Origin: a phage
Length of the DNA stretch: 64,000 nucleotides
Strand: one strand, 5' to 3'
Sequence record: NC_135729.1
Below the pieces are notes generated by a model. It worked only from the letters and a program-made list of their open reading frames with translations. It had not been told where the DNA came from and searched no databases. The position numbers and the translations under genes are program-made. Shown here piece by piece: positions 16,745 through 59,133 of this stretch (its first letter is position 1; each line of letters starts with the position of its first letter).

Positions 16745-16821
16745 TGGTCTCCACGGAGTGATTCGAACACTCGACCTCCTGATCCCAAATCAGGCGCTCT
16801 ACCAAGCTGAGCTACGCGGAG
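16745..16821 (-). tRNA. tRNA-Pro (anticodon TGG)
   Basis: Hand-folded cloverleaf: C1-G72 acceptor, D-arm GCTC/GAGC, anticodon loop TTTGGGA, T-loop TTCGAAT, encoded CCA. Confidence 0.8.
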
Positions 16822-16832
16822 TATCTACTATT

Positions 16833-16907
16833 TGGTGGCCCTGGGTGGAATTGAACCACCGTCTGGCGATTATGAGTCGCTTGCTTGAACCTTCCAGCTA
16901 CAGGGCC
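16833..16907 (-). tRNA. tRNA-Met (anticodon CAT; initiator, elongator or Ile2 not resolved)
   Basis: Hand-folded cloverleaf, anticodon loop CTCATAA, T-arm GGTGG/CCACC, encoded CCA. Confidence 0.7.
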
Positions 16908-16908
16908 A

Positions 16909-16983
16909 TGGTGCTGATGGCAGGACTTGAACCCGCAACCTATTGATTACAAATCAATTGCACTACCAATTGTGCTACATCAG
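16909..16983 (-). tRNA. tRNA-Thr (anticodon TGT)
   Basis: Hand-folded cloverleaf, D-arm GCAC/GTGC, anticodon loop TTTGTAA, T-loop TTCAAGT, encoded CCA. Confidence 0.8.
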
Positions 16984-16988
16984 CAAAA

Positions 16989-17087
16989 AGGTGCTAGGCG
17001 GTGGAATCGAACCACCTATGTATTCAACGACTACCTCGTCTATTTTCAGGATTAAAAATCCTCGCCCTTGCCAAAGGGCTTACCTAG
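16989..17087 (-). tRNA. aberrant tRNA-like element (about 97 nt; anticodon unresolved)
   Basis: Canonical acceptor stem, D-arm (GCCC/GGGC) and T-arm (GGTGG-TTCGATT-CCACC), but about 30 nt extra between anticodon-like hairpin and T-arm. Confidence 0.35.
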
Positions 17088-17185
17088 CTCAATATGTTGA
17101 CCATGTTGCTAGTCGGCGATGACGACTGTAACATTTGATAATCCGGTTCTGCTTCCGGCTTTCGCTTAATTGCAAGGTCAACAAT

Positions 17186-17276
17186 GTGGCGGAGAGTAAT
17201 GGAATCGAACCATCATCGAGTCATCCTCAACGGGACGGTTTTCAAGACCGCTTGAGCACCATTGCTCCCTACCCTC
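17186..17276 (-). tRNA. tRNA-Ser (anticodon TGA), type II
   Basis: Acceptor GGAGGGT, anticodon loop CTTGAAA, long variable arm, T-loop TTCGATT, encoded CCA. Confidence 0.7.
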
Positions 17277-17392
17277 CTTTATAAATTATACTGATAATGA
17301 CACTGATTTTCGAGCAGTTAGTGACTAGTATAAACGACGATAAATATCAATGCCATTATCTGTATTATTTATGCATCTAAAAAATATAAATT

Positions 17393-17479
17393 TGGTGGGG
17401 AGTGGTGGAGTCGAACCACCCGAGTCGCAATGACAATAGATTTACAGTCTACACCGCTACCTCTACGGGATAACTCCCC
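17393..17479 (-). tRNA. tRNA-Tyr (anticodon GTA), type II
   Basis: Anticodon loop CTGTAAA; variable arm TGTCATTGCGACTCG closely resembles E. coli tRNA-Tyr; T-arm GGTGG/CCACC; CCA encoded. Confidence 0.75.
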
Positions 17480-17483
17480 AATT

Positions 17484-17558
17484 TGGCACCCCGTACTGGA
17501 CTCGAACCAGTGTCAACGGCTTAGAAGGCCGCTGCTTTATCCACTAAGCTAACAGGGC
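17484..17558 (-). tRNA. tRNA-Arg (anticodon TCT)
   Basis: D-arm GCTT/AAGC, anticodon loop CTTCTAA, T-loop TTCGAGT, encoded CCA. Confidence 0.8.
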
Positions 17559-48701: not shown

Positions 48702-48935
48702 ATGAAAGTTAAATTTCTTACAGATTTAGGGTACCCTTCCTTGGTTGACTGTGTTGGTAAAATTGTGGAAGCAAAACGGCTATCTGCAAACGAGAATGTT
48801 GTCCTGGTTAAAGGGAAGGATTTACTAGCTGCAGGTGCAGAGTCTGGCAGGATCTCTCCTGATTATATGTATTACCTATCTTTAAGTAATCTGCCAGAGC
48901 GAGGCGGTAAAGGCCTTGAAGTTGTGGAGGAGTGA
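48702..48935 (+). CDS. small acidic protein, paralog family member
   Basis: MKVKFL N-terminus and KGKDLLAAGA motif shared with ORFs at 52261 and 52478. Confidence 0.45.
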   Translation: MKVKFLTDLGYPSLVDCVGKIVEAKRLSANENVVLVKGKDLLAAGAESGRISPDYMYYLSLSNLPERGGKGLEVVEE

Positions 48936-49465
48936 CAGGTATGCTTCTGATTAACTGGGAAGACCTCTATGGGGACAAAGACCCTGTTGCGTTTGTTGAT
49001 CGTAGGTGGAGATACACTGAAGAACAACTGGCGGCAAAAAATTTAACTGCAAAACGCAGAAAGATCATCCAGTGCAAGTACAAATACGCACAGTTTGCTG
49101 CAAAAGTGTCTCCACAAATCGAGAGCTTTGTGCTTAAATTGTATGACGAGTACCTCAAATTCAAATTGGATTTTGTGCAGGTGTACCGTGCACAGGTACG
49201 ACCAGATACCAACATATGTAGATGGAAGGTTGTTTGTGAAGGTAAAGATTTGCCGCTCAGCTTGACAATTGAGTGGCGTTATGGGTATCATGAGTGTGGT
49301 CTGTATGATATTTGGGATGTCATTGTAGATCCTGCTAAGCATCTGAACACAGAGGAGCTGGAATATATCAATAAGGTTATTCTCGATATGTTTTTCAGCT
49401 ACACACATGAAAACTCTGAGAAAGAACGGGATAATTTTCTTGACACCCTCAGCGACCATTTGTAG
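48932..49465 (+). CDS. hypothetical protein
   Basis: 177-aa ORF. Confidence 0.4.
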   Translation: MTGMLLINWEDLYGDKDPVAFVDRRWRYTEEQLAAKNLTAKRRKIIQCKYKYAQFAAKVSPQIESFVLKLYDEYLKFKLDFVQVYRAQVRPDTNICRWKVVCEGKDLPLSLTIEWRYGYHECGLYDIWDVIVDPAKHLNTEELEYINKVILDMFFSYTHENSEKERDNFLDTLSDHL

Positions 49466-49467
49466 TA
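49439..49467 (+). promoter_or_regulatory. sigma70-like promoter
   Basis: TTGACA, 17-nt spacer, TAGTAT. Confidence 0.5.
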
Positions 49468-49495
49468 TACAATTTAACCTACAAAGGGAGGACCA

Positions 49496-49723
49496 ATGAG
49501 TATAAATGTTGTGCTAATAGGTTACCTGGTAATGTCCGTTATAACAGCGGTATTCTTGACAGGTGTATGCATCGTGTCCAGACGAAGGGTGAAGTTTGAT
49601 GATTTTATCACCATCATCACTGCTGCACCTTTTTGGCCTGTTGTTATCTTCATCGTAATAATGTGCCTAGTTGATTACTACAAGAATATCAGGAAGGAGA
49701 GTAGGGATGGAGACCGCACCTAA
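49496..49723 (+). CDS. small two-helix membrane protein (holin-like topology)
   Basis: Two hydrophobic helices and charged C-terminus KNIRKESRDGDRT; 75 aa. Confidence 0.35.
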   Translation: MSINVVLIGYLVMSVITAVFLTGVCIVSRRRVKFDDFITIITAAPFWPVVIFIVIMCLVDYYKNIRKESRDGDRT

Positions 49724-49924
49724 AACTATCTATACTGTTCTTAAAGAGATTGCGTTCTACGCAGATCTTAGCCAGGCACCTTTATGGGAAAAGAGCATGT
49801 ATTTAAAATGGTGCGTTAATTTAGGGAGACCTTCCAGTGTTTCAAGCCATGTTTATTGAGATGCTATCTGGGATATTGTTACTGGTAGCCATCTTAGGTG
49901 GTGCAGTTCTGATGTATAACTATC

Positions 49925-50128
49925 TTGAAAAAGGAGACAGCAATGGTAAAAAATAAATCTTTAGAGCAGGCTGAAAACCTTCTCCACGAGCTGGTAAAGG
50001 AGTGGAAAGTTGAATACTCAGATTTTAATGCACGAGAGGGTGAAGATTATTGGCCTACGGAGCGCTCAGAGGGCGAATGGTATCAAGATTTTATAGAGTG
50101 GTTATATCAGACGTGCGATGAGGGGTGA
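49925..50128 (+). CDS. hypothetical protein
   Basis: 67-aa acidic ORF. Confidence 0.35.
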   Translation: MKKETAMVKNKSLEQAENLLHELVKEWKVEYSDFNAREGEDYWPTERSEGEWYQDFIEWLYQTCDEG

Positions 50129-50595
50129 CGATGTTTGTTAAATATGTAAAAACGTGCCTCAACAGTCTTGGCAGAGAGCATTGGTACACCTTGCTTGAAA
50201 AAGGGGAAATTTTAACAAAATCTGGAAAGATAACTTTGATACCTCTTGATAGTAAAGGTAAAGACCCGTCACGACTTGTTATAGATGATTACGTTACAGG
50301 TGTGACGTTCGAGGTCTCTGTGGATAGGTTAATACGCAGAGCTGGCGGCCCTTATGACCGAAGAGAGTATGTTTTCGATTCCGTTACAGAGATGGGGGAG
50401 CCTCCGTCTTTAATGTTCAGGATGGTAATCAGAGATATGAGGTCATCTATAGATAGGATCGTAAAGGACATTAAGGAACCTTTTAGAGTAAAAGTTAAGA
50501 AGTTTTTCGATTCTAAGATTAACATACTCGCCGTTGCACTAGGTGTAGTTCAACTTCTGTTAATTTTGCACTATTTTGAACTACTATTTAAGTAG
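50125..50595 (+). CDS. hypothetical protein
   Basis: 156-aa ORF. Confidence 0.4.
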   Translation: MTMFVKYVKTCLNSLGREHWYTLLEKGEILTKSGKITLIPLDSKGKDPSRLVIDDYVTGVTFEVSVDRLIRRAGGPYDRREYVFDSVTEMGEPPSLMFRMVIRDMRSSIDRIVKDIKEPFRVKVKKFFDSKINILAVALGVVQLLLILHYFELLFK

Positions 50596-50657
50596 TAGTT
50601 GAGATATGGCACAAAGGATGTGCCATAGTGAAATAAACTAAGAAAGAGGTAGAGAGA

Positions 50658-51005
50658 ATGCCAAAGATTAAAACGTTATTACTGTGGGTAGCTGTTTTAG
50701 CTTTTATAGGGTACTGGACTTGGGAAACTGAATTAAAAGATATCGGATATACCAGTCTTGAGAGCAAGGCGTGCATTGGCATAACCGATGCGTTCAGGCA
50801 AAATGCTATGGATCACGAATGTGTTGATGCAGATATAGATGAGAAACTGTCTAAGGACAAAGATTTTTACCATGGGCATGCTTTACTTGATAGTGGTGAC
50901 ACTGTAGAGTTCTGGTCGTGGTTTCGTGAAGATGGAACAATAAAAACAGCAGTAAAGATCTCTAACAAAGAGTTAATGCTGTTGCAGCAAAAGGAGGCTC
51001 AATGA
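50658..51005 (+). CDS. hypothetical membrane-anchored protein
   Basis: N-terminal hydrophobic helix LLLWVAVLAFIGYW. Confidence 0.4.
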   Translation: MPKIKTLLLWVAVLAFIGYWTWETELKDIGYTSLESKACIGITDAFRQNAMDHECVDADIDEKLSKDKDFYHGHALLDSGDTVEFWSWFREDGTIKTAVKISNKELMLLQQKEAQ

Positions 51006-51289
51006 TCTGGATATCCTATGCTGATGGCACCATGCTGTATACTGCAGGTACCAGATATGAAGTTCAGGAGAACGATAAAAAATTTATCGTAAAAACATTT
51101 GACAAGGACGACAACCTTTTGCTAGAATTGACTTACAAAGTTGGAGAGGTATCCAATATCCAGTTGGATTGTGGTCATAAAGATAATCCACTCAAAAAAC
51201 CTGGAGTAGGTAAGGCTTCAGAAGAACGTCTGTCTCGTATTGCAGAAAGCGTTTCTCCCCAAAAATCTAAGAAGAGGACTAGAAAATGA
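51002..51289 (+). CDS. hypothetical protein
   Basis: 95-aa ORF, coupled. Confidence 0.35.
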   Translation: MIWISYADGTMLYTAGTRYEVQENDKKFIVKTFDKDDNLLLELTYKVGEVSNIQLDCGHKDNPLKKPGVGKASEERLSRIAESVSPQKSKKRTRK

Positions 51290-51480
51290 AAAACTTACGT
51301 TTTAACACTTATTACTACAACACATTGAATGATTTGTATTATATTGTTCGAAGTAAAAGTCCTGAAACAGTCCTATTCTGCCGCGAACCTTTCAAAGGGG
51401 AGGAAGTAGAGTCTGAGATGAATGTTAGCCAGATCACCTCTTTGTTGCTCTCAGGCGCAATGGAAGAAGCAATATTCTAA
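51286..51480 (+). CDS. hypothetical protein
   Basis: 64-aa ORF, coupled. Confidence 0.3.
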   Translation: MKNLRFNTYYYNTLNDLYYIVRSKSPETVLFCREPFKGEEVESEMNVSQITSLLLSGAMEEAIF

Positions 51481-51498
51481 ACCAGGCAGGAGGGTTTT

Positions 51499-51687
51499 AT
51501 GAAGCACTATTGCCTGTCTGGTAGAATGGGTGCAGATTGTGATTGGGTTTTCTTAAAACTTGTCAGCATTCGAGAGTTCATCCCAGAGGAAGAGCAAGAA
51601 AGCGAGCTGATGTCATGGATCAACCATTACGGTAACACTTTTCGGCATGTTAAGGTAGAAGAGTTGCCAAGCGAGGCTGAATTATGA
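51499..51687 (+). CDS. hypothetical protein
   Basis: 62-aa ORF. Confidence 0.3.
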   Translation: MKHYCLSGRMGADCDWVFLKLVSIREFIPEEEQESELMSWINHYGNTFRHVKVEELPSEAEL

Positions 51688-51980
51688 AACTTTTTGAGTG
51701 GTTTAAAAAGTTTAAATATAAAGCTGTAGCCATCGTGCCGTGGTCCATTCAGTGGGTTGATGAAGGTGGTCTACCGATACCTGGTGACAAAGATACTGGG
51801 TACTGGATTATGATGGAGAACGGGTTTGGAAAGCGAAAGTATACGTGCACAAACTCTACTCGATCTGCACTTAATAGAGTGCCTGGTTACAAACTTATGG
51901 TTGTGTGGAAAATGTCAGGCGTGCCTCCAGCCAATGCTCAATTTCTTACTGACAATCCGACCACGGTAGAGGGAGATTGA
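51684..51980 (+). CDS. hypothetical protein
   Basis: 98-aa ORF, coupled. Confidence 0.35.
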   Translation: MKLFEWFKKFKYKAVAIVPWSIQWVDEGGLPIPGDKDTGYWIMMENGFGKRKYTCTNSTRSALNRVPGYKLMVVWKMSGVPPANAQFLTDNPTTVEGD

Positions 51981-52264
51981 TAATGAAAAAGATTAACAGT
52001 AGTGAAGTAGAGTTTAAACTTGTCGGAAAAGGCACTTACTGGGAAGTTCGTCAAAAGGTATATTTGTTCGGTCTTATTCCCTACTGGTCTAAATTCTACT
52101 GGGGAGCTAACGAGTTGGGAAGATACGCCACCAAATCAATGGCACTTATTGGTATAGCAGAGTACATTGCAGCCCGAGACAGGGTTGGAACCACTTATTA
52201 CTACACTGCTGACGATATTCGTAACAGTGTTTACGTCCCACAACCACCTGATGGAGACCGTTGA
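51977..52264 (+). CDS. hypothetical protein
   Basis: 95-aa ORF, coupled. Confidence 0.35.
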   Translation: MIMKKINSSEVEFKLVGKGTYWEVRQKVYLFGLIPYWSKFYWGANELGRYATKSMALIGIAEYIAARDRVGTTYYYTADDIRNSVYVPQPPDGDR

Positions 52265-52488
52265 TGAAAGTTAAAGTTTTAGATTCAAGCTTCTATATTG
52301 GTCAGGAGCCTTTAGTAGGAAAAGTGTTTACTGCTGTCCCTAACGAAGATTACCCTGACCTTTTAAAAATAAAAGGAGCAGATCTTATTGCCGCTGGTGC
52401 ATCTCAGGAATGCTTTGACAGTCAGTGGACCTATAACTTTGCCCTAGGTGAGGATGTAGAGGTAGTGGAGGACGATCATGAAGGTTAA
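52261..52488 (+). CDS. small acidic protein, paralog family member
   Basis: MMKVKVLDSSFYIGQEPLVGKV and KGADLIAAGA; close paralog of next ORF. Confidence 0.45.
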   Translation: MMKVKVLDSSFYIGQEPLVGKVFTAVPNEDYPDLLKIKGADLIAAGASQECFDSQWTYNFALGEDVEVVEDDHEG

Positions 52489-52732
52489 AATTCTTGATTC
52501 TAACGTCTACTTGGGACAATCCTTCCTGAATGGAAAGGTCGTTCCTGCGGTATACTTTGAAGGGTTGCCGTGGGATGATCCTGTGCGGCAACATCACAGT
52601 TATGTAGGCCACAACGTGGTGTTTATCTTGGGATCAGACCTGATCACCGCTGGTGCACCTGAATATTATTTCGGGGAAGAGTCCTACTATGCCTTTGGGG
52701 TAGGGTCAGATGCAGATATTGTAGAGCTGTGA
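52478..52732 (+). CDS. small acidic protein, paralog family member
   Basis: MKVKILDSNVYLGQSFLNGKV and GSDLITAGA; overlaps previous paralog. Confidence 0.45.
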   Translation: MKVKILDSNVYLGQSFLNGKVVPAVYFEGLPWDDPVRQHHSYVGHNVVFILGSDLITAGAPEYYFGEESYYAFGVGSDADIVEL

Positions 52733-52744
52733 TGGGTAACCGTT

Positions 52745-53143
52745 GTGAAAAATAAACTGTTCAAAGTTACAATGAAAATTCGCGGAGCTTGGAGCGTAAA
52801 GCAAGGGCGTATCCCAGAATTTGAGAAAGACTTCTACGTAGTCTCCACCTCGGAGGAGGCTGCATGCTGGCAGGCTGGCTATGCCTATGCAAGAACCTGG
52901 TACGAAGGATACCAGACTGGGGGCTATGACGGAGAAATTGTCAGCAAGGGTGTAGAAGAAATTAATGTGTTGACAAGTGAAAAAGTTTTTGTTATAGTGC
53001 ATCCAGATTCCAGAGTGAAGCATTACTGGAATGCCAGAACAAAAACTTGGACACCGTTTGCAGATTCTGCTACTCCACTTTTAAACCAGAAAGCTCTTGA
53101 CTCTGCCCCAAGTTATGGGGTTGTTGAAGAAAAGCTAAACTGA
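52745..53143 (+). CDS. hypothetical protein, paralog of ORF 54958..55353
   Basis: Shared block VFVIVHPDSRVKHYWNARTKTWTP versus KFVMRHPHSNIAYYWDVLNNEWTP. Confidence 0.45.
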   Translation: MKNKLFKVTMKIRGAWSVKQGRIPEFEKDFYVVSTSEEAACWQAGYAYARTWYEGYQTGGYDGEIVSKGVEEINVLTSEKVFVIVHPDSRVKHYWNARTKTWTPFADSATPLLNQKALDSAPSYGVVEEKLN

Positions 53144-53160
53144 AACAGTGAGGTGTCACC

Positions 53161-53451
53161 ATGATGGATTTAATTCTAAATATTGATAACGCAGGAGAGT
53201 TTAAAGACGATGGTGTAACAAGCATGGACAAACCCTGCTCTGCTAAGGTTGACTCAAAATGGACCTATAAGTTTGATGGAGAGATCTTCGCAAATGATGA
53301 GAAGGTTGTAGATGCTGCAGCCATTTTGAACGCTCTAGGTTACGACCCTGTGAATTCTTTGATCAAGGATCCTGTTGAGTTTGCGGAGTATGTTCGAAAA
53401 ATGGCAGATCTTGCTGTAGATATTTTAAAAACTATCGACAACAAGCTATAA
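53161..53451 (+). CDS. hypothetical protein
   Basis: 96-aa acidic ORF. Confidence 0.35.
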   Translation: MMDLILNIDNAGEFKDDGVTSMDKPCSAKVDSKWTYKFDGEIFANDEKVVDAAAILNALGYDPVNSLIKDPVEFAEYVRKMADLAVDILKTIDNKL

Positions 53452-53456
53452 AACTG

Positions 53457-53485
53457 TTGACACAATGCTTCAGCTATAGTATTAT
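53457..53485 (+). promoter_or_regulatory. sigma70-like promoter upstream of HPF homologue
   Basis: TTGACA, 17-nt spacer, TATTAT; followed by leader hairpin AAGAGAGA...TCTCTCTT. Confidence 0.55.
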
Positions 53486-53537
53486 TGTTTTCAAAGAGAG
53501 ATGGTTGTTACTCTCTCTTCCTTAAAAGGAGCACGTT

Positions 53538-53855
53538 ATGCAAATTGAAATCACTGGCAACGTAGAAATCACTGAAGGTATGGTGTCTTTCATTTCCCAC
53601 AAAATGTCTAAGCTGGAGCGTTTGCACCCATCTGCCAACTATGCACGTGTGAGTGTAAAAGTTGAAAATGATCACCAGGAAGTCATGGCGTTCATTTTTG
53701 ACACTTCCGGAAAAGAAGTTATTGCCAAAGCTAAAGGTAGTGACGCTTACGAGGCAACTGACCGTATGGTAGATGTTGCAGCACGTCAGCTGGCTAAATG
53801 CGGTGGAAAGAAAGGTAAGGGGAAAGGCAAAGTAAAGATTGACTTTGGAGAATGA
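53538..53855 (+). CDS. ribosome hibernation promoting factor homologue (HPF/RaiA/YfiA family)
   Basis: MQIEITGNVEITEG...KLE...VSVKVEN...KAKGSDAYEATDRMVDVAARQL aligns with E. coli HPF as recalled from memory. Confidence 0.7.
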   Translation: MQIEITGNVEITEGMVSFISHKMSKLERLHPSANYARVSVKVENDHQEVMAFIFDTSGKEVIAKAKGSDAYEATDRMVDVAARQLAKCGGKKGKGKGKVKIDFGE

Positions 53856-53864
53856 GGTGCTACA

Positions 53865-53966
53865 ATGGGCGTGATTAAGAAATTAGTCCCAAATGTAGAG
53901 ATTGCATGCTTTGAAATTATGTTTGCAATCGCAGTTGTAGTTAATGTGTTAGGTTACGGCTATTAA
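53865..53966 (+). CDS. small hydrophobic peptide (33 aa, below ORF-track cutoff)
   Basis: GAGGTG SD; MGVIKKLVPNVEIACFEIMFAIAVVVNVLGYGY. Confidence 0.3.
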   Translation: MGVIKKLVPNVEIACFEIMFAIAVVVNVLGYGY

Positions 53967-53992
53967 TATCAAATAATTGAGGAGACCTCTAA

Positions 53993-54262
53993 ATGAAAAT
54001 TAAATTATTCAAAACTGAGCTGGCAGACAAAAACTGTGGACTGGTTGAAGGCATGATCGTTGAAGCACAACCAGTGGACTACATGAAGGTAGTTCGTGAT
54101 GCACTGGGTGAAGGCTTTGATCTGATGGAGCCAGCTCTGCGAGAAGATGTTATCGAGATGGCTAAAAAGCACACACCTGAAGGCTTGGTGGTGTTTGTTG
54201 CACCGGGTAACGGAGAAGAGTTGATTGTAACTCCTGATGTGTATGAGATTGTAGAAGAGTAA
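53993..54262 (+). CDS. small acidic protein
   Basis: 89-aa ORF, MKIKLF N-terminus, acidic IVEE C-terminus. Confidence 0.4.
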   Translation: MKIKLFKTELADKNCGLVEGMIVEAQPVDYMKVVRDALGEGFDLMEPALREDVIEMAKKHTPEGLVVFVAPGNGEELIVTPDVYEIVEE

Positions 54263-54357
54263 TCCTGCTTGGATTAGCATACTTCTCTCAATAAAAAGAA
54301 AAGTTTGTAATTATTTGTGGGAAAGGAATCCCCATCTCTTGCCAGAGGTGATACTAT

Positions 54358-54621
54358 ATGATTGTTTATTTTAAAACTTCAGGTGGATACCCTGATTCTC
54401 AAAGCTTGATCGGAAAAACGTGCACAGCATACTCACCTTTTGATGAGGAGGTAAGCGATATCCTACGAGATATGTATCGGATTGATCCCCAAGAAGCTTT
54501 TGATCAAAACCTTGTATTTGTCAAGGGCTCAGACATGAAGTCTTTGGGAGCATTCCCTGAAGCAGATGATGATGCTGTTTATTCGTTCATGACTCCTTTT
54601 GAAGCTATGGTTGTTGGGTGA
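54358..54621 (+). CDS. small acidic protein
   Basis: 87-aa ORF. Confidence 0.4.
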   Translation: MIVYFKTSGGYPDSQSLIGKTCTAYSPFDEEVSDILRDMYRIDPQEAFDQNLVFVKGSDMKSLGAFPEADDDAVYSFMTPFEAMVVG

Positions 54622-54625
54622 GAAT

Positions 54626-54958
54626 ATGAAAGTACGATTTATTGGTGAAACAATTCCTGTGCATCTCCGGTCGCCTGAAGATTCTGCAGATCTTGCATCT
54701 CAGAAGGCGAGAGGTTATGATAAGAAAGTAATCTCAACCGATGTAGAGCTTGAGGCTACCAGTCTACCTGACCCTGCTGCATTCTTTAATCATTATGGGT
54801 ACTATTTCAGCAATCTGATGAATATAGGGGAGCTTGTGTTTATTAGTGGTGGAGAAATTGTTAGCAAGCTTGGCGGCGATCCGGATGTCTTTCATGAAAC
54901 CTGTCCTTTTGCATTTGTGGTTGGTTCAGATGTGGAAGTTATTGAGGAGGTGCGGTAA
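54626..54958 (+). CDS. small acidic protein, probable paralog family member
   Basis: Start at Met MKVRFIGET; C-terminal VVGSDVEVIEE resembles family C-termini. Confidence 0.4.
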   Translation: MKVRFIGETIPVHLRSPEDSADLASQKARGYDKKVISTDVELEATSLPDPAAFFNHYGYYFSNLMNIGELVFISGGEIVSKLGGDPDVFHETCPFAFVVGSDVEVIEEVR

Positions 54959-55353
54959 TGGTAAGCCTATACCGTGTTGAGTATAGCTCAGATACTGTGT
55001 ACAACGTAAGAAGTAAAGATCGCAGCGACAGAGTGCAAGAAATGTATGTTCTTGCCGACAGTCCGTTATCTGCAGCGTTCAAGGCAGGGGCTCTTGCATC
55101 TCGTTGGAAATTTGAAGGCGGATCTTTCTATGAAGAAACCCTTGAAGATTCTGTTGTTATTTCTTCTGTAGAGGTTTCAGATGACTACGAAGGGAAAAAG
55201 TTCGTAATGCGGCACCCACACAGCAACATTGCGTACTACTGGGATGTTCTGAACAACGAGTGGACCCCAGATCTTCAGAAGGCTACTGTGCTAACACCGT
55301 TTTTGGCAGATAAGTTCCCACCAGAAGGTAATTTATCCGCATTGTTTCAGTGA
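54958..55353 (+). CDS. hypothetical protein, paralog of ORF 52745..53143
   Basis: Shared HP(D/H)S..YW...WTP block. Confidence 0.45.
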   Translation: MVSLYRVEYSSDTVYNVRSKDRSDRVQEMYVLADSPLSAAFKAGALASRWKFEGGSFYEETLEDSVVISSVEVSDDYEGKKFVMRHPHSNIAYYWDVLNNEWTPDLQKATVLTPFLADKFPPEGNLSALFQ

Positions 55354-55433
55354 TTTTCTTGCACACAGGTATTGACAACGCCAACCCTGTGTGCAATAAT
55401 ACACCCATCTTAACAAAACAGGAGATTTTAATA

Positions 55434-55682
55434 ATGAAAATTAAACTTAAGAATATTGATGAGGCCGCTTTAGAAGGTATCGATTTCGATTTCCCATTTA
55501 AAAACGGGGATATCATTGAAGCACAAATTCCTACCCGAGAAATGGTAAATAGTTTTGCAGAAGATGGTGCGGCAACAATGATTATGCTAATTATGGACGG
55601 CACTCTCTTCATTGGGGAAGAGGACGATCCAATCATGATTCCTGGTCATTTTTATGAATTAGTTGACGAAGAGGTGCTGTAA
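55434..55682 (+). CDS. small acidic protein
   Basis: Start at Met MKIKLKNID with AGGAGA SD. Confidence 0.4.
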   Translation: MKIKLKNIDEAALEGIDFDFPFKNGDIIEAQIPTREMVNSFAEDGAATMIMLIMDGTLFIGEEDDPIMIPGHFYELVDEEVL

Positions 55683-56033
55683 ATGAAAGTAGAAATTACC
55701 GGTTTTGATGTGAATGTGGTTCCGGAAGATATTTTAGCTAAACTTCCGGAAGGTTTTGGTAACGGCGTTGTGGTGGATGCTGTTCCTCCTACCAAAGACA
55801 TTCTGCTGCAGTATGGTGTAGCAGAGGAAGATGTCGATAAAGTTCTTACAATGATGGCAATCGATCGTGTTGTCGTTGTTAAGGGTCTCGATAATTTTGA
55901 GAGTGATCCCCTGATTATTCGTGGAGATGACTACAAAATCATCGATAATGAAGGCCAAGAGTTCTATGAACCTTGTGCAGAAGATATTCTTAACTTATTA
56001 CTGGAAGCAGGCACCGAAGAGGAGGACGAATAA
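55683..56033 (+). CDS. small acidic protein
   Basis: 116-aa ORF, start abuts previous stop. Confidence 0.4.
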   Translation: MKVEITGFDVNVVPEDILAKLPEGFGNGVVVDAVPPTKDILLQYGVAEEDVDKVLTMMAIDRVVVVKGLDNFESDPLIIRGDDYKIIDNEGQEFYEPCAEDILNLLLEAGTEEEDE

Positions 56034-56362
56034 TGAAGATTGACCCGTTACTGAAGGCTCGTGCAGAAAAAGCGTACACCATTAAGCTGACCAACCTGGT
56101 TCCTACTTGTCATCCGGATGTAGGTTGGCCCGAAGGTTTGGTGGAGGGAACTGTAACAGCTGCATACCTTCCTAACATCAAATACCTTATGGAAATCTTA
56201 GAGATGGATGAGGAAACTGCAGAACAGTTCCAGTTGGATATGAAACAGAGTGGAACTCTGGTTATTCACGGGTGGTATAATACTAAAGATGCAGAAGACC
56301 CTCTGGTAACTTCTAATCTGGCATATGAAATCTTAGGGCCTTTGAACCTGGAGGAAGACTAA
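56033..56362 (+). CDS. small acidic protein
   Basis: 109-aa ORF, coupled. Confidence 0.4.
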   Translation: MKIDPLLKARAEKAYTIKLTNLVPTCHPDVGWPEGLVEGTVTAAYLPNIKYLMEILEMDEETAEQFQLDMKQSGTLVIHGWYNTKDAEDPLVTSNLAYEILGPLNLEED

Positions 56363-56649
56363 TGAAAGATCTGGTTAAGATTAAGATTAAAGATACCAAT
56401 GGGGAGCTCAGCCATTTTGGAATTAATGATGGTGACGAGCTGATCGCACACCTGCCTACCAAGGAGGTTGTAAGCAAAGCAGTTGCCGGAGAAGAAGCTG
56501 CAATGCAGGCTGCAGGTGTGGATGAAAACTATGTAGCTATGTGCATGTGCCGAGATCAGGTTGTTCTGTATAAAGCGTATCGACCAAACGGAGCCACGGA
56601 GTGGCTTGTATTCCGACCCGAAGGATATGAAATCTTAGAGGCAATATGA
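56362..56649 (+). CDS. small acidic protein
   Basis: 95-aa ORF, coupled. Confidence 0.4.
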   Translation: MKDLVKIKIKDTNGELSHFGINDGDELIAHLPTKEVVSKAVAGEEAAMQAAGVDENYVAMCMCRDQVVLYKAYRPNGATEWLVFRPEGYEILEAI

Positions 56650-58440: not shown

Positions 58441-59133
58441 CAAAATATCAAATTTAAGACACCTAGGACGCTCTGTGGCGTCCTTTTCTTTATCTGGTGC
58501 ACGATTGCATACCTTGGGTAGTTAATCTCATTACAGAGCGTTTAAGAGCTCCCTACAAACAACTCCATATTTCGAGCGTAGCGAGAACGCACGTCCGTTT
58601 TGACCCAAATCACCATACGCTCGGATTTTAACCAAACCCTCGCGGCGTTTCTGTTGACACATTGCCGCTCCAGTGATAGTATCCACACATCGTTTGGAGA
58701 ATATGGAATACACAATGAAAACATTGTCAGAGGTTTTGGTGGTGATCCTGATGATCATTACGTCCATAGTGGCTGTTGCCGGAATACTCACGGGTGGAAC
58801 ATGATAAACACACATGCATCTGAAGAGACATCCAAAGGAGTGACTATATGTCCCTTGACTGAGCCAGTGCAAGAGGAAAACTTCGATTCTGAAGATTCTC
58901 CATCTTCGCTCCAGGTAGACCCTGAGGCTGATGACCTAACGTGGGAAGACATCGTAGATATCTGGTTCTCTATTATGCCTGAGCACGAAGAGTTCAGAGG
59001 TGGTAGACTATGAAGCACCGAGCCCACACAGGTTCCTCATGCTAAAGCATGGCCTGAAGAGGCAAACGTGCATAATTCCAGTGCATTGGAACATATAAAC
59101 CCTGTTCACATTCTCATTTCCAGAGGAGATTTC

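Follow-up and report, generated by a model that had tools for sequence, protein, structure and literature searches.

Along positions 48702 to 56649 of a 64,000-nucleotide (nt) stretch of phage DNA (NC_135729.1; the whole stretch is called the window below) lies an array of small genes whose acidic products begin and end alike. The array raises the questions of whether these genes are paralogs, how fast they evolve and what their products might do for the phage. The original prediction saw in them one tandem expansion that diversifies quickly, of a kind often devoted to host takeover or anti-defence. We find that the ten open reading frames (ORFs) make up small accessory paralog families that have a common predicted fold and are not fast-evolving.

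More than 100 rV5-like Escherichia coli myophages of the genus Vequintavirus, among them slur12, slur16, rV5_ev and Murica, share 98% identity with the window over the 9.5 kb around the array. The array forms part of a block of approximately 34 small genes on the plus strand (47.7 to 58.4 kb), upstream of which lie genes for a ClpP-like protease and a DNA methyltransferase. Nearly all genes of the block are annotated as hypothetical in every record inspected. We named the ten genes, all on the plus strand, A (48702..48935; 77 amino acids [aa]), B (52264..52488; 74 aa), C (52478..52732; 84 aa), D (53993..54262; 89 aa), E (54358..54621; 87 aa), F (54626..54958; 110 aa), G (55434..55682; 82 aa), H (55683..56033; 116 aa), I (56033..56362; 109 aa) and J (56362..56649; 95 aa). 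B starts at the ATG at 52264 and not at 52261 as first proposed, and the other starts were correct. The coordinates bear out the tight packing and the overlaps of 1 to 11 nt that had been noticed, with five overlapping junctions, B/C by 11 nt and g15/B, F/X2 (X2 is introduced below), H/I and I/J by 1 nt each; G and H abut without a gap, and 4 nt separate E from F. The proteins are indeed small and acidic, with isoelectric points (pI) of 4.05 to 4.8 in nine of the ten (4.1 for B, 4.4 for D, 4.05 for both E and G) and 5.4 in the exception, A. Net charges range from -6 to -21 in nine of them, the lowest value being that of H, which carries an acidic C-terminal tail.

We aligned the products of the 34 genes of the block by the Smith-Waterman method in all 561 pairs, each compared with 200 shuffles. 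Five proteins formed a first family, with z-scores of 23 (B-C), 15 (A-B), 8.8 (C-F), 8.1 (B-F), 7.5 (A-E), 6.8 (A-C) and 6.1 (C-E). The other five formed a second family, with z-scores of 8.6 (G-H), 6.2 (H-J), 5.9 (G-J), 4.2 (H-I) and 3.6 (D-G). As the pairwise scores of D and I, the weakest members, were low, we turned to held-out profiles, with the full set of 1088 six-frame ORFs of the window as the search space. A profile of A, B and C orthologs detected F (E = 3.4e-5) and E (E = 1.1e-4), the next match having an E value of 1.9. A profile of G, H and J detected I (0.005) and D (0.025; next match, 1.4). Adding I to that profile brought D to 0.0038 (next match, 3.9), and adding D instead gave I at 0.0049 (next match, 0.92). 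Because held-out profiles pick out the divergent members E, F, D and I, all ten ORFs are true paralogs. Within each family the similarity of the aligned sequences is real and far above that of the shuffled controls, the comparison on which the original prediction had staked its claim.

That prediction had nevertheless assumed one family where we distinguish two. The internal KG.DLI.AGA and C-terminal G.DVEVVE motifs on which it relied are real, but they are confined to A, B, C, E and F. The members of family 2 (D, G, H, I and J) have no more in common with this family 1 than an N-terminal MK(I/V)K(L/I) strand and a G-x-h-h-x-A motif. Family 2 was found neither by the family 1 profiles A6 and C1 (E < 0.1) nor by the profile of the phage protein family phrog_5009; the A6 alignment comprises A, B, C and 25 distant representatives, 28 sequences in all. 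Profile-profile comparison of the two families did yield colinear alignments (hhalign P values of 0.0006 to 0.025), with a local score of 21.1 versus 8.2 ± 1.5 for 140 column shuffles. After trimming of the first strand (MKxKxL), however, the score between the families dropped to 10.8 and was equalled by 5 of 150 shuffles. Since the profile link rests on the first strand and MK- starts are common among the genes of the block, we treat the families as separate. A single family of ten members is unproven, as its signal is lost with the MKxKxL strand and the A6 and C1 profiles miss family 2; judging from the profiles, the two families may be distantly related.

The alignments revealed a third paralog pair that the original prediction had missed. 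X1 (52745..53143, plus strand; 132 aa) and X2 (54958..55353, plus strand; 131 aa) align with a z-score of 16.5 and belong to phrog_7379 (E = 8e-74, over the full length from the GTG start, and 2e-66, respectively). Each directly follows a family 1 pair on its 3' side, in the orders B-C-X1 and E-F-X2. A segmental duplication of the former into the latter is unsupported as stated: B and C are most closely related to one another (z-score of 23), E-F reaches a z-score of 3.1, and C-, E- and F-type orthologs already exist in a divergent metagenomic relative (L029). A common unit composed of one or more barrel genes plus an X gene is possible. At the DNA level all that is left of a repeat is a 30-nt remnant between B and C, which argues that the duplications are old. 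No further copies were found in the rest of the window or in positions 1 to 90 kb of the slur16 genome.

A separate observation concerns the gene at 53161-53451, whose 96-aa product contains, at residues ~30 to 45, the stretch VDSKWTYKFDGE, similar to the fourth strand of family 1 (in B, FDSQWTYNFALGE). The DNA at 53249-53275 is 78% identical over 27 nt to that at 52415-52441, and the protein z-score is 4.2. This gene may be a family 1 remnant fused to a helical C-terminal part.

We modelled one member of each family with AlphaFold2. The model of B, computed with 34 homologs, had a predicted local distance difference test score (pLDDT) of 91.9 and a predicted template modelling score (pTM) of 0.79. 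Its strands span residues 2-5, 21-23, 33-37, 56-61 and 65-69, and a short helix at residues 38-43 bears the conserved G.DLI.AGA motif. The model of G (pLDDT, 83.3; pTM, 0.70) shows the same succession of five strands, with two helices inserted after the second. In both predicted models, five antiparallel strands form a small barrel that superposes on SH3, KOW or PsaE domains. Families 1 and 2, as represented by B and G, are thus predicted to be five-stranded SH3-like beta-barrels.

The likeness to the SH3-like small-barrel class, which includes SH3 domains, the KOW domains of NusG/Spt5, PsaE and the C-terminal domain of retroviral integrase, is at the level of the fold only. Sequence identity is 4 to 26%, there is no Pfam SH3 or KOW match, and a ligand cannot be deduced with certainty; in addition, family 1 differs from the class by its conserved short helix (G.DLI.AGA) after strand 3. 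Pfam gave no family at E ≤ 1 for eight of the ten proteins, the other two having only sub-threshold matches to unrelated families, which speaks against canonical SH3/KOW membership. Sequence searches of the PDB with the array proteins came back empty, with no specific solved relative. A Foldseek search of BFVD returned unnamed small phage proteins of similar size, with TM-scores (template modelling scores) of 0.63 to 0.86 over the whole chain. These matches come from Shigella phages CM1 and Sf20, Cronobacter phage CS01, Citrobacter phage Merlin, coliphage RB49 and Vibrio phage VpV262, at 14 to 37% identity; only that of CM1 is a Vequintavirus ortholog, and the others are structural likenesses not shown to be homologous.

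The core of the barrel is kept within each family, and most of the variation in length falls in the loop that connects strands 2 and 3. In the family 1 alignments this loop has no insertion in A and in B, which represents the minimal form; it is longer by ~14 residues in C, ~20 in E and ~45 in F. In family 2 it holds a helical insert of varying length, the longest being that of D; I is further distinguished by an N-terminal extension. The conserved positions are hydrophobic, aromatic or glycine (Y11, G38, L41, G45 and Y57).

We compared the window with seven Vequintavirus genomes, slur16, rV5, 10C2, FV3, S127 BCL3, YP-6 and nomo, eight genomes in all. The ten genes together with X1 and X2 are present in the same number and the same order in all eight. 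Pooled Nei-Gojobori ratios of nonsynonymous to synonymous substitution rates (dN/dS) ranged from 0.03 to 0.21 for the ten genes, with a median of 0.10 as opposed to 0.09 for the other 24 genes of the block (Mann-Whitney P = 0.69); among the individual values are 0.12 for A, 0.03 for D, 0.08 for E, 0.06 for F, 0.09 for I and, outside the two families, 0.03 for X2. As these ratios are low and equal to those of the neighbors, the genes are real, functional and constrained, evolving no faster than the genes around them. A, D and H occur once each in 117 to 125 GenBank records (118 for H), without presence/absence variation.

The metagenomic relative L029, 128 kb in length, carries one-to-one orthologs of all ten genes in the same order, at protein identities of 74% (A), 66% (B), 42% (C), 58% (D), 58% (E), 54% (F), 44% (G), 29% (H), 47% (I) and 45% (J). 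It retains X2, and an unrelated 96-aa gene takes the position of X1. In a neighbor-joining tree, each paralog of the window groups with its own distant ortholog and not with another paralog of the window, which argues that the expansion is old and stable. The idea of quick diversification is thus not supported, nor is turnover of copy number or content among related phages, since gene content is constant in the eight genomes and in L029. Each paralog persists as a separate line of orthologs under purifying selection, so that every copy does something that the phage needs.

Alleles have nevertheless been exchanged, among the ten genes only at G and C. Alignment inspection showed that G of the window is only ~55% identical at the protein level to the allele of the seven other genomes (slur16 and others; L001, 10431-10688), whereas its flanks, the upstream promoter and downstream H, are nearly identical across genomes. 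This pattern indicates a cassette-like replacement by recombination. A replaced C allele is found in YP-6 and nomo, at 76 to 78% nucleotide identity. In two rare 70-aa proteins from metagenomic rV5-like sequences (P0013 and P0017), an N-terminal part corresponding to two thirds of B is fused to the last third of C; such fusions would be the expected product of unequal recombination between tandem copies, with the loss of one gene. Mosaic replacement also affects the unrelated neighbors g05, g06, g12, g14 and g15 and is therefore characteristic of the block as a whole rather than of the two families. Two further sequence oddities touch family 2. In the rV5 reference record (L019, 9226-9496), J appears as two overlapping ORFs, gp148 and gp149, as a result of either a frameshift mutation or a sequencing error; the gene is intact, with 288 nt, in the seven other genomes compared. 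A 98-aa protein of a 657-nt ENA contig (P0071) combines 47 N-terminal residues from the small phage domain PF24132 with the C-terminal half of I, and may be a recombinant or an assembly artefact.

The placement of the array in an early region, as originally proposed, agrees with its promoters. Two consensus sigma-70-type promoters lie in intergenic gaps on the plus strand and are annotated as such in the rV5 record. P144 (53457..53485; TTGACA-17-TATTAT, 11 of 12 matches) is located upstream of D and of a gene for a ribosome hibernation factor described below, and P150 (55372..55400; TTGACA-17-AATAAT with a TG extension), which is conserved in slur16, precedes the G-H-I-J operon. Their strength and sequence fit early transcription by the host polymerase. 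The authors of the rV5 genome paper placed these genes in one long rightward unit (genes 82 to 163) with host-type promoters (PMC3606486). In the main text of that paper, virion mass spectrometry lists gp133 (50131-50595 in the window) and no member of the families (PMC3606486). Early, non-structural expression is thus likely on the evidence of the promoter sequences. A strong terminator-like hairpin is found at 58465-58484, and further terminator-like matches occur inside the gene block. The -35 box of the G-H-I-J promoter is itself flanked by a 14-nt inverted repeat, 93% complementary (TTCTTGCACACAGG at 55356-55369 and CCTGTGTGCAATAA at 55386-55399) and conserved in slur16. The repeat has the appearance of a hairpin or of an operator bound by a dimeric regulator.

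The gene for the ribosome hibernation factor homolog (HPF/RaiA, S30AE; 53538..53855, plus strand; PF02482, E = 1.9e-12) lies inside the array without being a family member. In several GenBank records (nomo, magaca, naswa and S127 BCL3), it is D that bears the label "sigma 54 modulation factor." D resembles HPF/RaiA in size and is situated 138 nt downstream of the true homolog, but it had no PF02482 match in the Pfam scan and groups with family 2. As D lacks an S30AE match, its label looks carried over, most likely from the neighboring HPF gene.

Family 1 is not restricted to these phages. A (E = 8e-36), B (2e-38) and C (4e-32) match phrog_5009 over profile positions 1 to 74 of 74. E matches phrog_13920, and phrog_5009 at 1.3e-4; F has no direct match. 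The A6 profile detects E at 2.7e-8 and F at 1.9e-5, and all of its 28 sequences match phrog_5009. By sequence, A, B and C are members of phrog_5009, a family of proteins of ~70 aa with the consensus MKVKLL..GGY..GKVV.A...G.DLI.AGA...Y.F..G.E.EVIEE, and E and F are more divergent members whose loops carry insertions. A word-indexed search of 5.8 billion proteins gave 35 clusters for family 1 and 40 for family 2; many of these, including most of the largest, are on contigs of ~100 to 140 kb, and many others are on short fragments. When the family 1 profile was run exhaustively with HMMER against 1.84 billion representatives, it gave 45 matches at E ≤ 1e-3, most of which are 63 to 87 aa long, align end to end and share the consensus MKVKLLNDGGY.GM..V.GKVVEA....I.G.ELI.AGA....F.....Y.F..G.E.EVIEE. 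Some chains have two or three copies of the domain (P0085, P0088 and P0110) and others the domain followed by other sequence (P0097, P0099, P0107 and P0109). The giant proteins P0077, P0106 and P0114 were treated as spurious, since they match through short repeated stretches and P0106 is a YDG/MBG repeat protein. No Pfam or NCBIfam family was found for the 28 A6 sequences, nor any Pfam match among 34 relatives scanned. Searches of Pfam, NCBIfam, PADLOC and PDB sequences with the array proteins gave no characterized relative, PADLOC having no family at E ≤ 0.01 for any of the ten. Family 2 was seen only in Vequintavirus and in one divergent metagenomic relative, and each of its members has a genus-level PHROG of its own. 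Among GenBank phages, D and H occur only in Vequintavirus, in one copy per record.

A (rV5 gp122/ORF127) is the window member nearest to the single-copy relatives of temperate phages, such as mEp021 gp40, with 41 to 49% identity to genes of mEp phages, and is also related to the prophage protein P0030. In the temperate E. coli phages mEp021, mEp013 and mEp554 and in prophages, a single A-like homolog lies between late antiterminator Q and holin genes. In other prophages and in IMG/VR contigs the relative occupies an early-left operon, with erf/recT-ssb on one side and genes for a NinX-family protein, an MT-A70 methyltransferase and the integrase on the other. One 143-kb contig of virulent type has a single copy, and an IMG/VR contig (L008) shows one clear and two weak adjacent matches. 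Relatives also occur in phages of Proteus, Klebsiella, Morganella, Aeromonas, Iodobacter and Pantoea, and all are labelled hypothetical. These neighborhoods are all accessory-gene regions, and that is the sole functional hint that context provides. The phrog_5009 proteins of temperate and virulent Enterobacterales, Aeromonas and Iodobacter phages (mEp021 gp40 and other "MKVKLLNDGGY..." proteins) share with family 1 the elements MKVKLL, GKVV.A, G.(D/E)LI.AGA, Y.F and (E/D)VIEE. They are single-copy in nearly all loci examined, the exceptions being L008 and the chains of two or three domains, whereas the phage studied here has five copies as separate genes, of which three carry large insertions in the loop.

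The temperate loci show a recurrent small module beside the MT-A70 methyltransferase and integrase genes. In six of them (L010, L016, L017, L018, L027 and L028) a NinX-family gene (PF10765, "MNKYTELSDFEIN...") follows the phrog_5009 gene. A conserved ORF of 50 to 53 aa with a hydrophobic start ("MQIIGYVLLMLIQGSAVPVT...") precedes the phrog_5009 gene, either directly or one gene further upstream, in all of these loci but L016, where it was not seen. A link between the 174-aa gene that follows A and the gene that precedes a prophage homolog was dropped, as they share only a YxYHECG heptad (E = 0.007 in a single comparison).

What the array proteins do must be judged from these features. An enzymatic role is unlikely, because the proteins are too small and have no Pfam, NCBIfam, PADLOC or PDB sequence match; DNA binding is unlikely as well, acidic pI values of 4.05 to 4.8 disfavoring nucleic acids as ligands. 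Some relatives carry the domain repeated or fused within a single chain (P0085, P0088, P0110 and P0107), as a binding module would be expected to do. We therefore lean, with somewhat less than even confidence, toward early stoichiometric protein binders that present different loops on one scaffold, most likely to host partners in takeover or immunity. The proteins would be made early by host RNA polymerase, as the promoter consensus suggests. With a different loop on the same small SH3-like scaffold, each would hold or block a partner of its own, most likely one from the host. The array would have arisen by old duplications that preceded the split of the genus Vequintavirus, family 1 being presumably a branch of the wider, usually single-copy phage family phrog_5009.

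Several points weigh against a set of host-directed binders. Strong purifying selection and stable copy number are unlike the usual arms-race binders and make a classic role of that kind somewhat less likely. The models were predicted from shallow alignments (34 sequences), and the G.DLI.AGA helix and the aromatic residues Y11 and Y57 could equally serve self-assembly. The findings do not distinguish takeover from anti-defence. A bolder form of the binder reading is doubtful. It would see in the ten genes a stable multi-target toolkit for takeover or immune evasion on one SH3-like scaffold, in which the strand 2-3 loop (0 to ~45 residues, extended or helical) assigns each barrel a host target of its own. 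In this view the two families would be ancient offshoots of a single superfamily, and the single-copy phrog_5009 genes of temperate phages the ancestral one-target form.

Among the rivals, the one that survives best holds that these are anti-defence factors proper, each paralog inhibiting a different bacterial immune system or serving as its decoy or sponge. The original prediction's guess of host takeover or anti-defence is a reasonable one. In favor of anti-defence, the proteins are small, acidic, multi-copy and encoded in an early region, their relatives reside in accessory or moron-type regions of temperate phages, and genomes that are otherwise almost identical carry exchanged alleles at G and C. 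We nonetheless consider a strictly anti-defence role unlikely, given dN/dS values of ~0.1 that do not differ from those of the neighbors, the lack of presence/absence variation in 117 to 125 records and the one-to-one orthologs retained in distant L029; searches of Pfam, NCBIfam, PADLOC and PDB sequences, a partial test, gave no similarity to a known protein.

Less probable still are phage-internal gene-expression factors, that is, KOW- or Tudor-like barrels docking on the ribosome, RNA polymerase or Rho/NusG-type partners alongside the phage HPF. The HPF/S30AE gene (53538-53855) does sit between family genes, the strong purifying selection suits a housekeeping-type role, and the fold matches include KOW-like domains. 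This neighborhood was seen only in Vequintavirus, however, the phrog_5009 relatives of other phages being found without it; moreover, no KOW or other Pfam motif is present, and the acidic pI speaks against RNA binding.

We find it improbable that the proteins are acidic mimics or competitors of nucleic acids, like Ocr or Arn, that occupy the DNA-binding sites of host enzymes. Net charges of -6 to -21 in nine of the ten are what such mimics would show, and H ends in EEEDE and many members in EE or DEE. Yet A (pI 5.4) and several relatives are near neutral, and the fold differs from those of known DNA mimics. A DNA-mimic role is less likely mainly because the conserved positions (Y11, G38, L41, G45 and Y57) are glycine, aromatic or hydrophobic and not acidic. 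The weakest rival, that the similarity is meaningless and reflects chance or non-coding ORFs or a shared composition with MK- starts, can draw on the frequency of such starts in the block and on a between-family link that nearly vanishes without the first strand, but it is barely credible in view of z-scores of up to 23, successful held-out detection, dN/dS far below 1 for every gene, confident AlphaFold models and 45 cluster representatives in 1.84 billion proteins (mostly colinear, full-length and ~70 aa, with a few multi-domain or giant repeat proteins); by these comparisons it is refuted within the families and stands only for the link between families 1 and 2.

Some observations lie outside the array. 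Eighteen GenBank records named "Campylobacter phage" (within MG065635-MG065690), most with Campylobacter jejuni as the host, are 98% identical to the E. coli rV5-like phages in this region, and their names are probably due to contamination or mislabelling. At 16745-17558, on the minus strand, the window contains seven clustered tRNA genes (Pro, Met, Thr, Ser, Tyr and Arg). The cluster includes an odd 99-nt tRNA-like gene (16990-17088) with a four-base anticodon (atcc) according to ARAGORN.

As for what is new, phrog_5009 and the SH3-like fold class were already catalogued, and the paralogy, the shared predicted fold and the loop hot spot are newly described. The rV5 genome paper makes no mention of paralogs, duplication, a shared fold or a loop hot spot (PMC3606486), no mention of gp40/ORF40 or of morons was found in the mEp021 paper, and none of phrog_5009 in the literature searched. 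A third of the ~30 hypothetical genes of the block (ten, or twelve with X1 and X2) now reduce to three families, two of which share a confidently predicted small-barrel fold. phrog_5009 emerges as a broad phage family without a Pfam entry, and a recurring mislabel of D is corrected.

Vequintaviruses are widely used in the biocontrol of E. coli O157 and in phage therapy collections. For these phages the result amounts to a short ordered list of genes for functional screens, with B as a minimal 74-aa scaffold for structure work. Should the proteins turn out to bind host targets through their diversified loops, they would represent a compact natural scaffold family; otherwise the array would be an ordinary group of conserved accessory genes.

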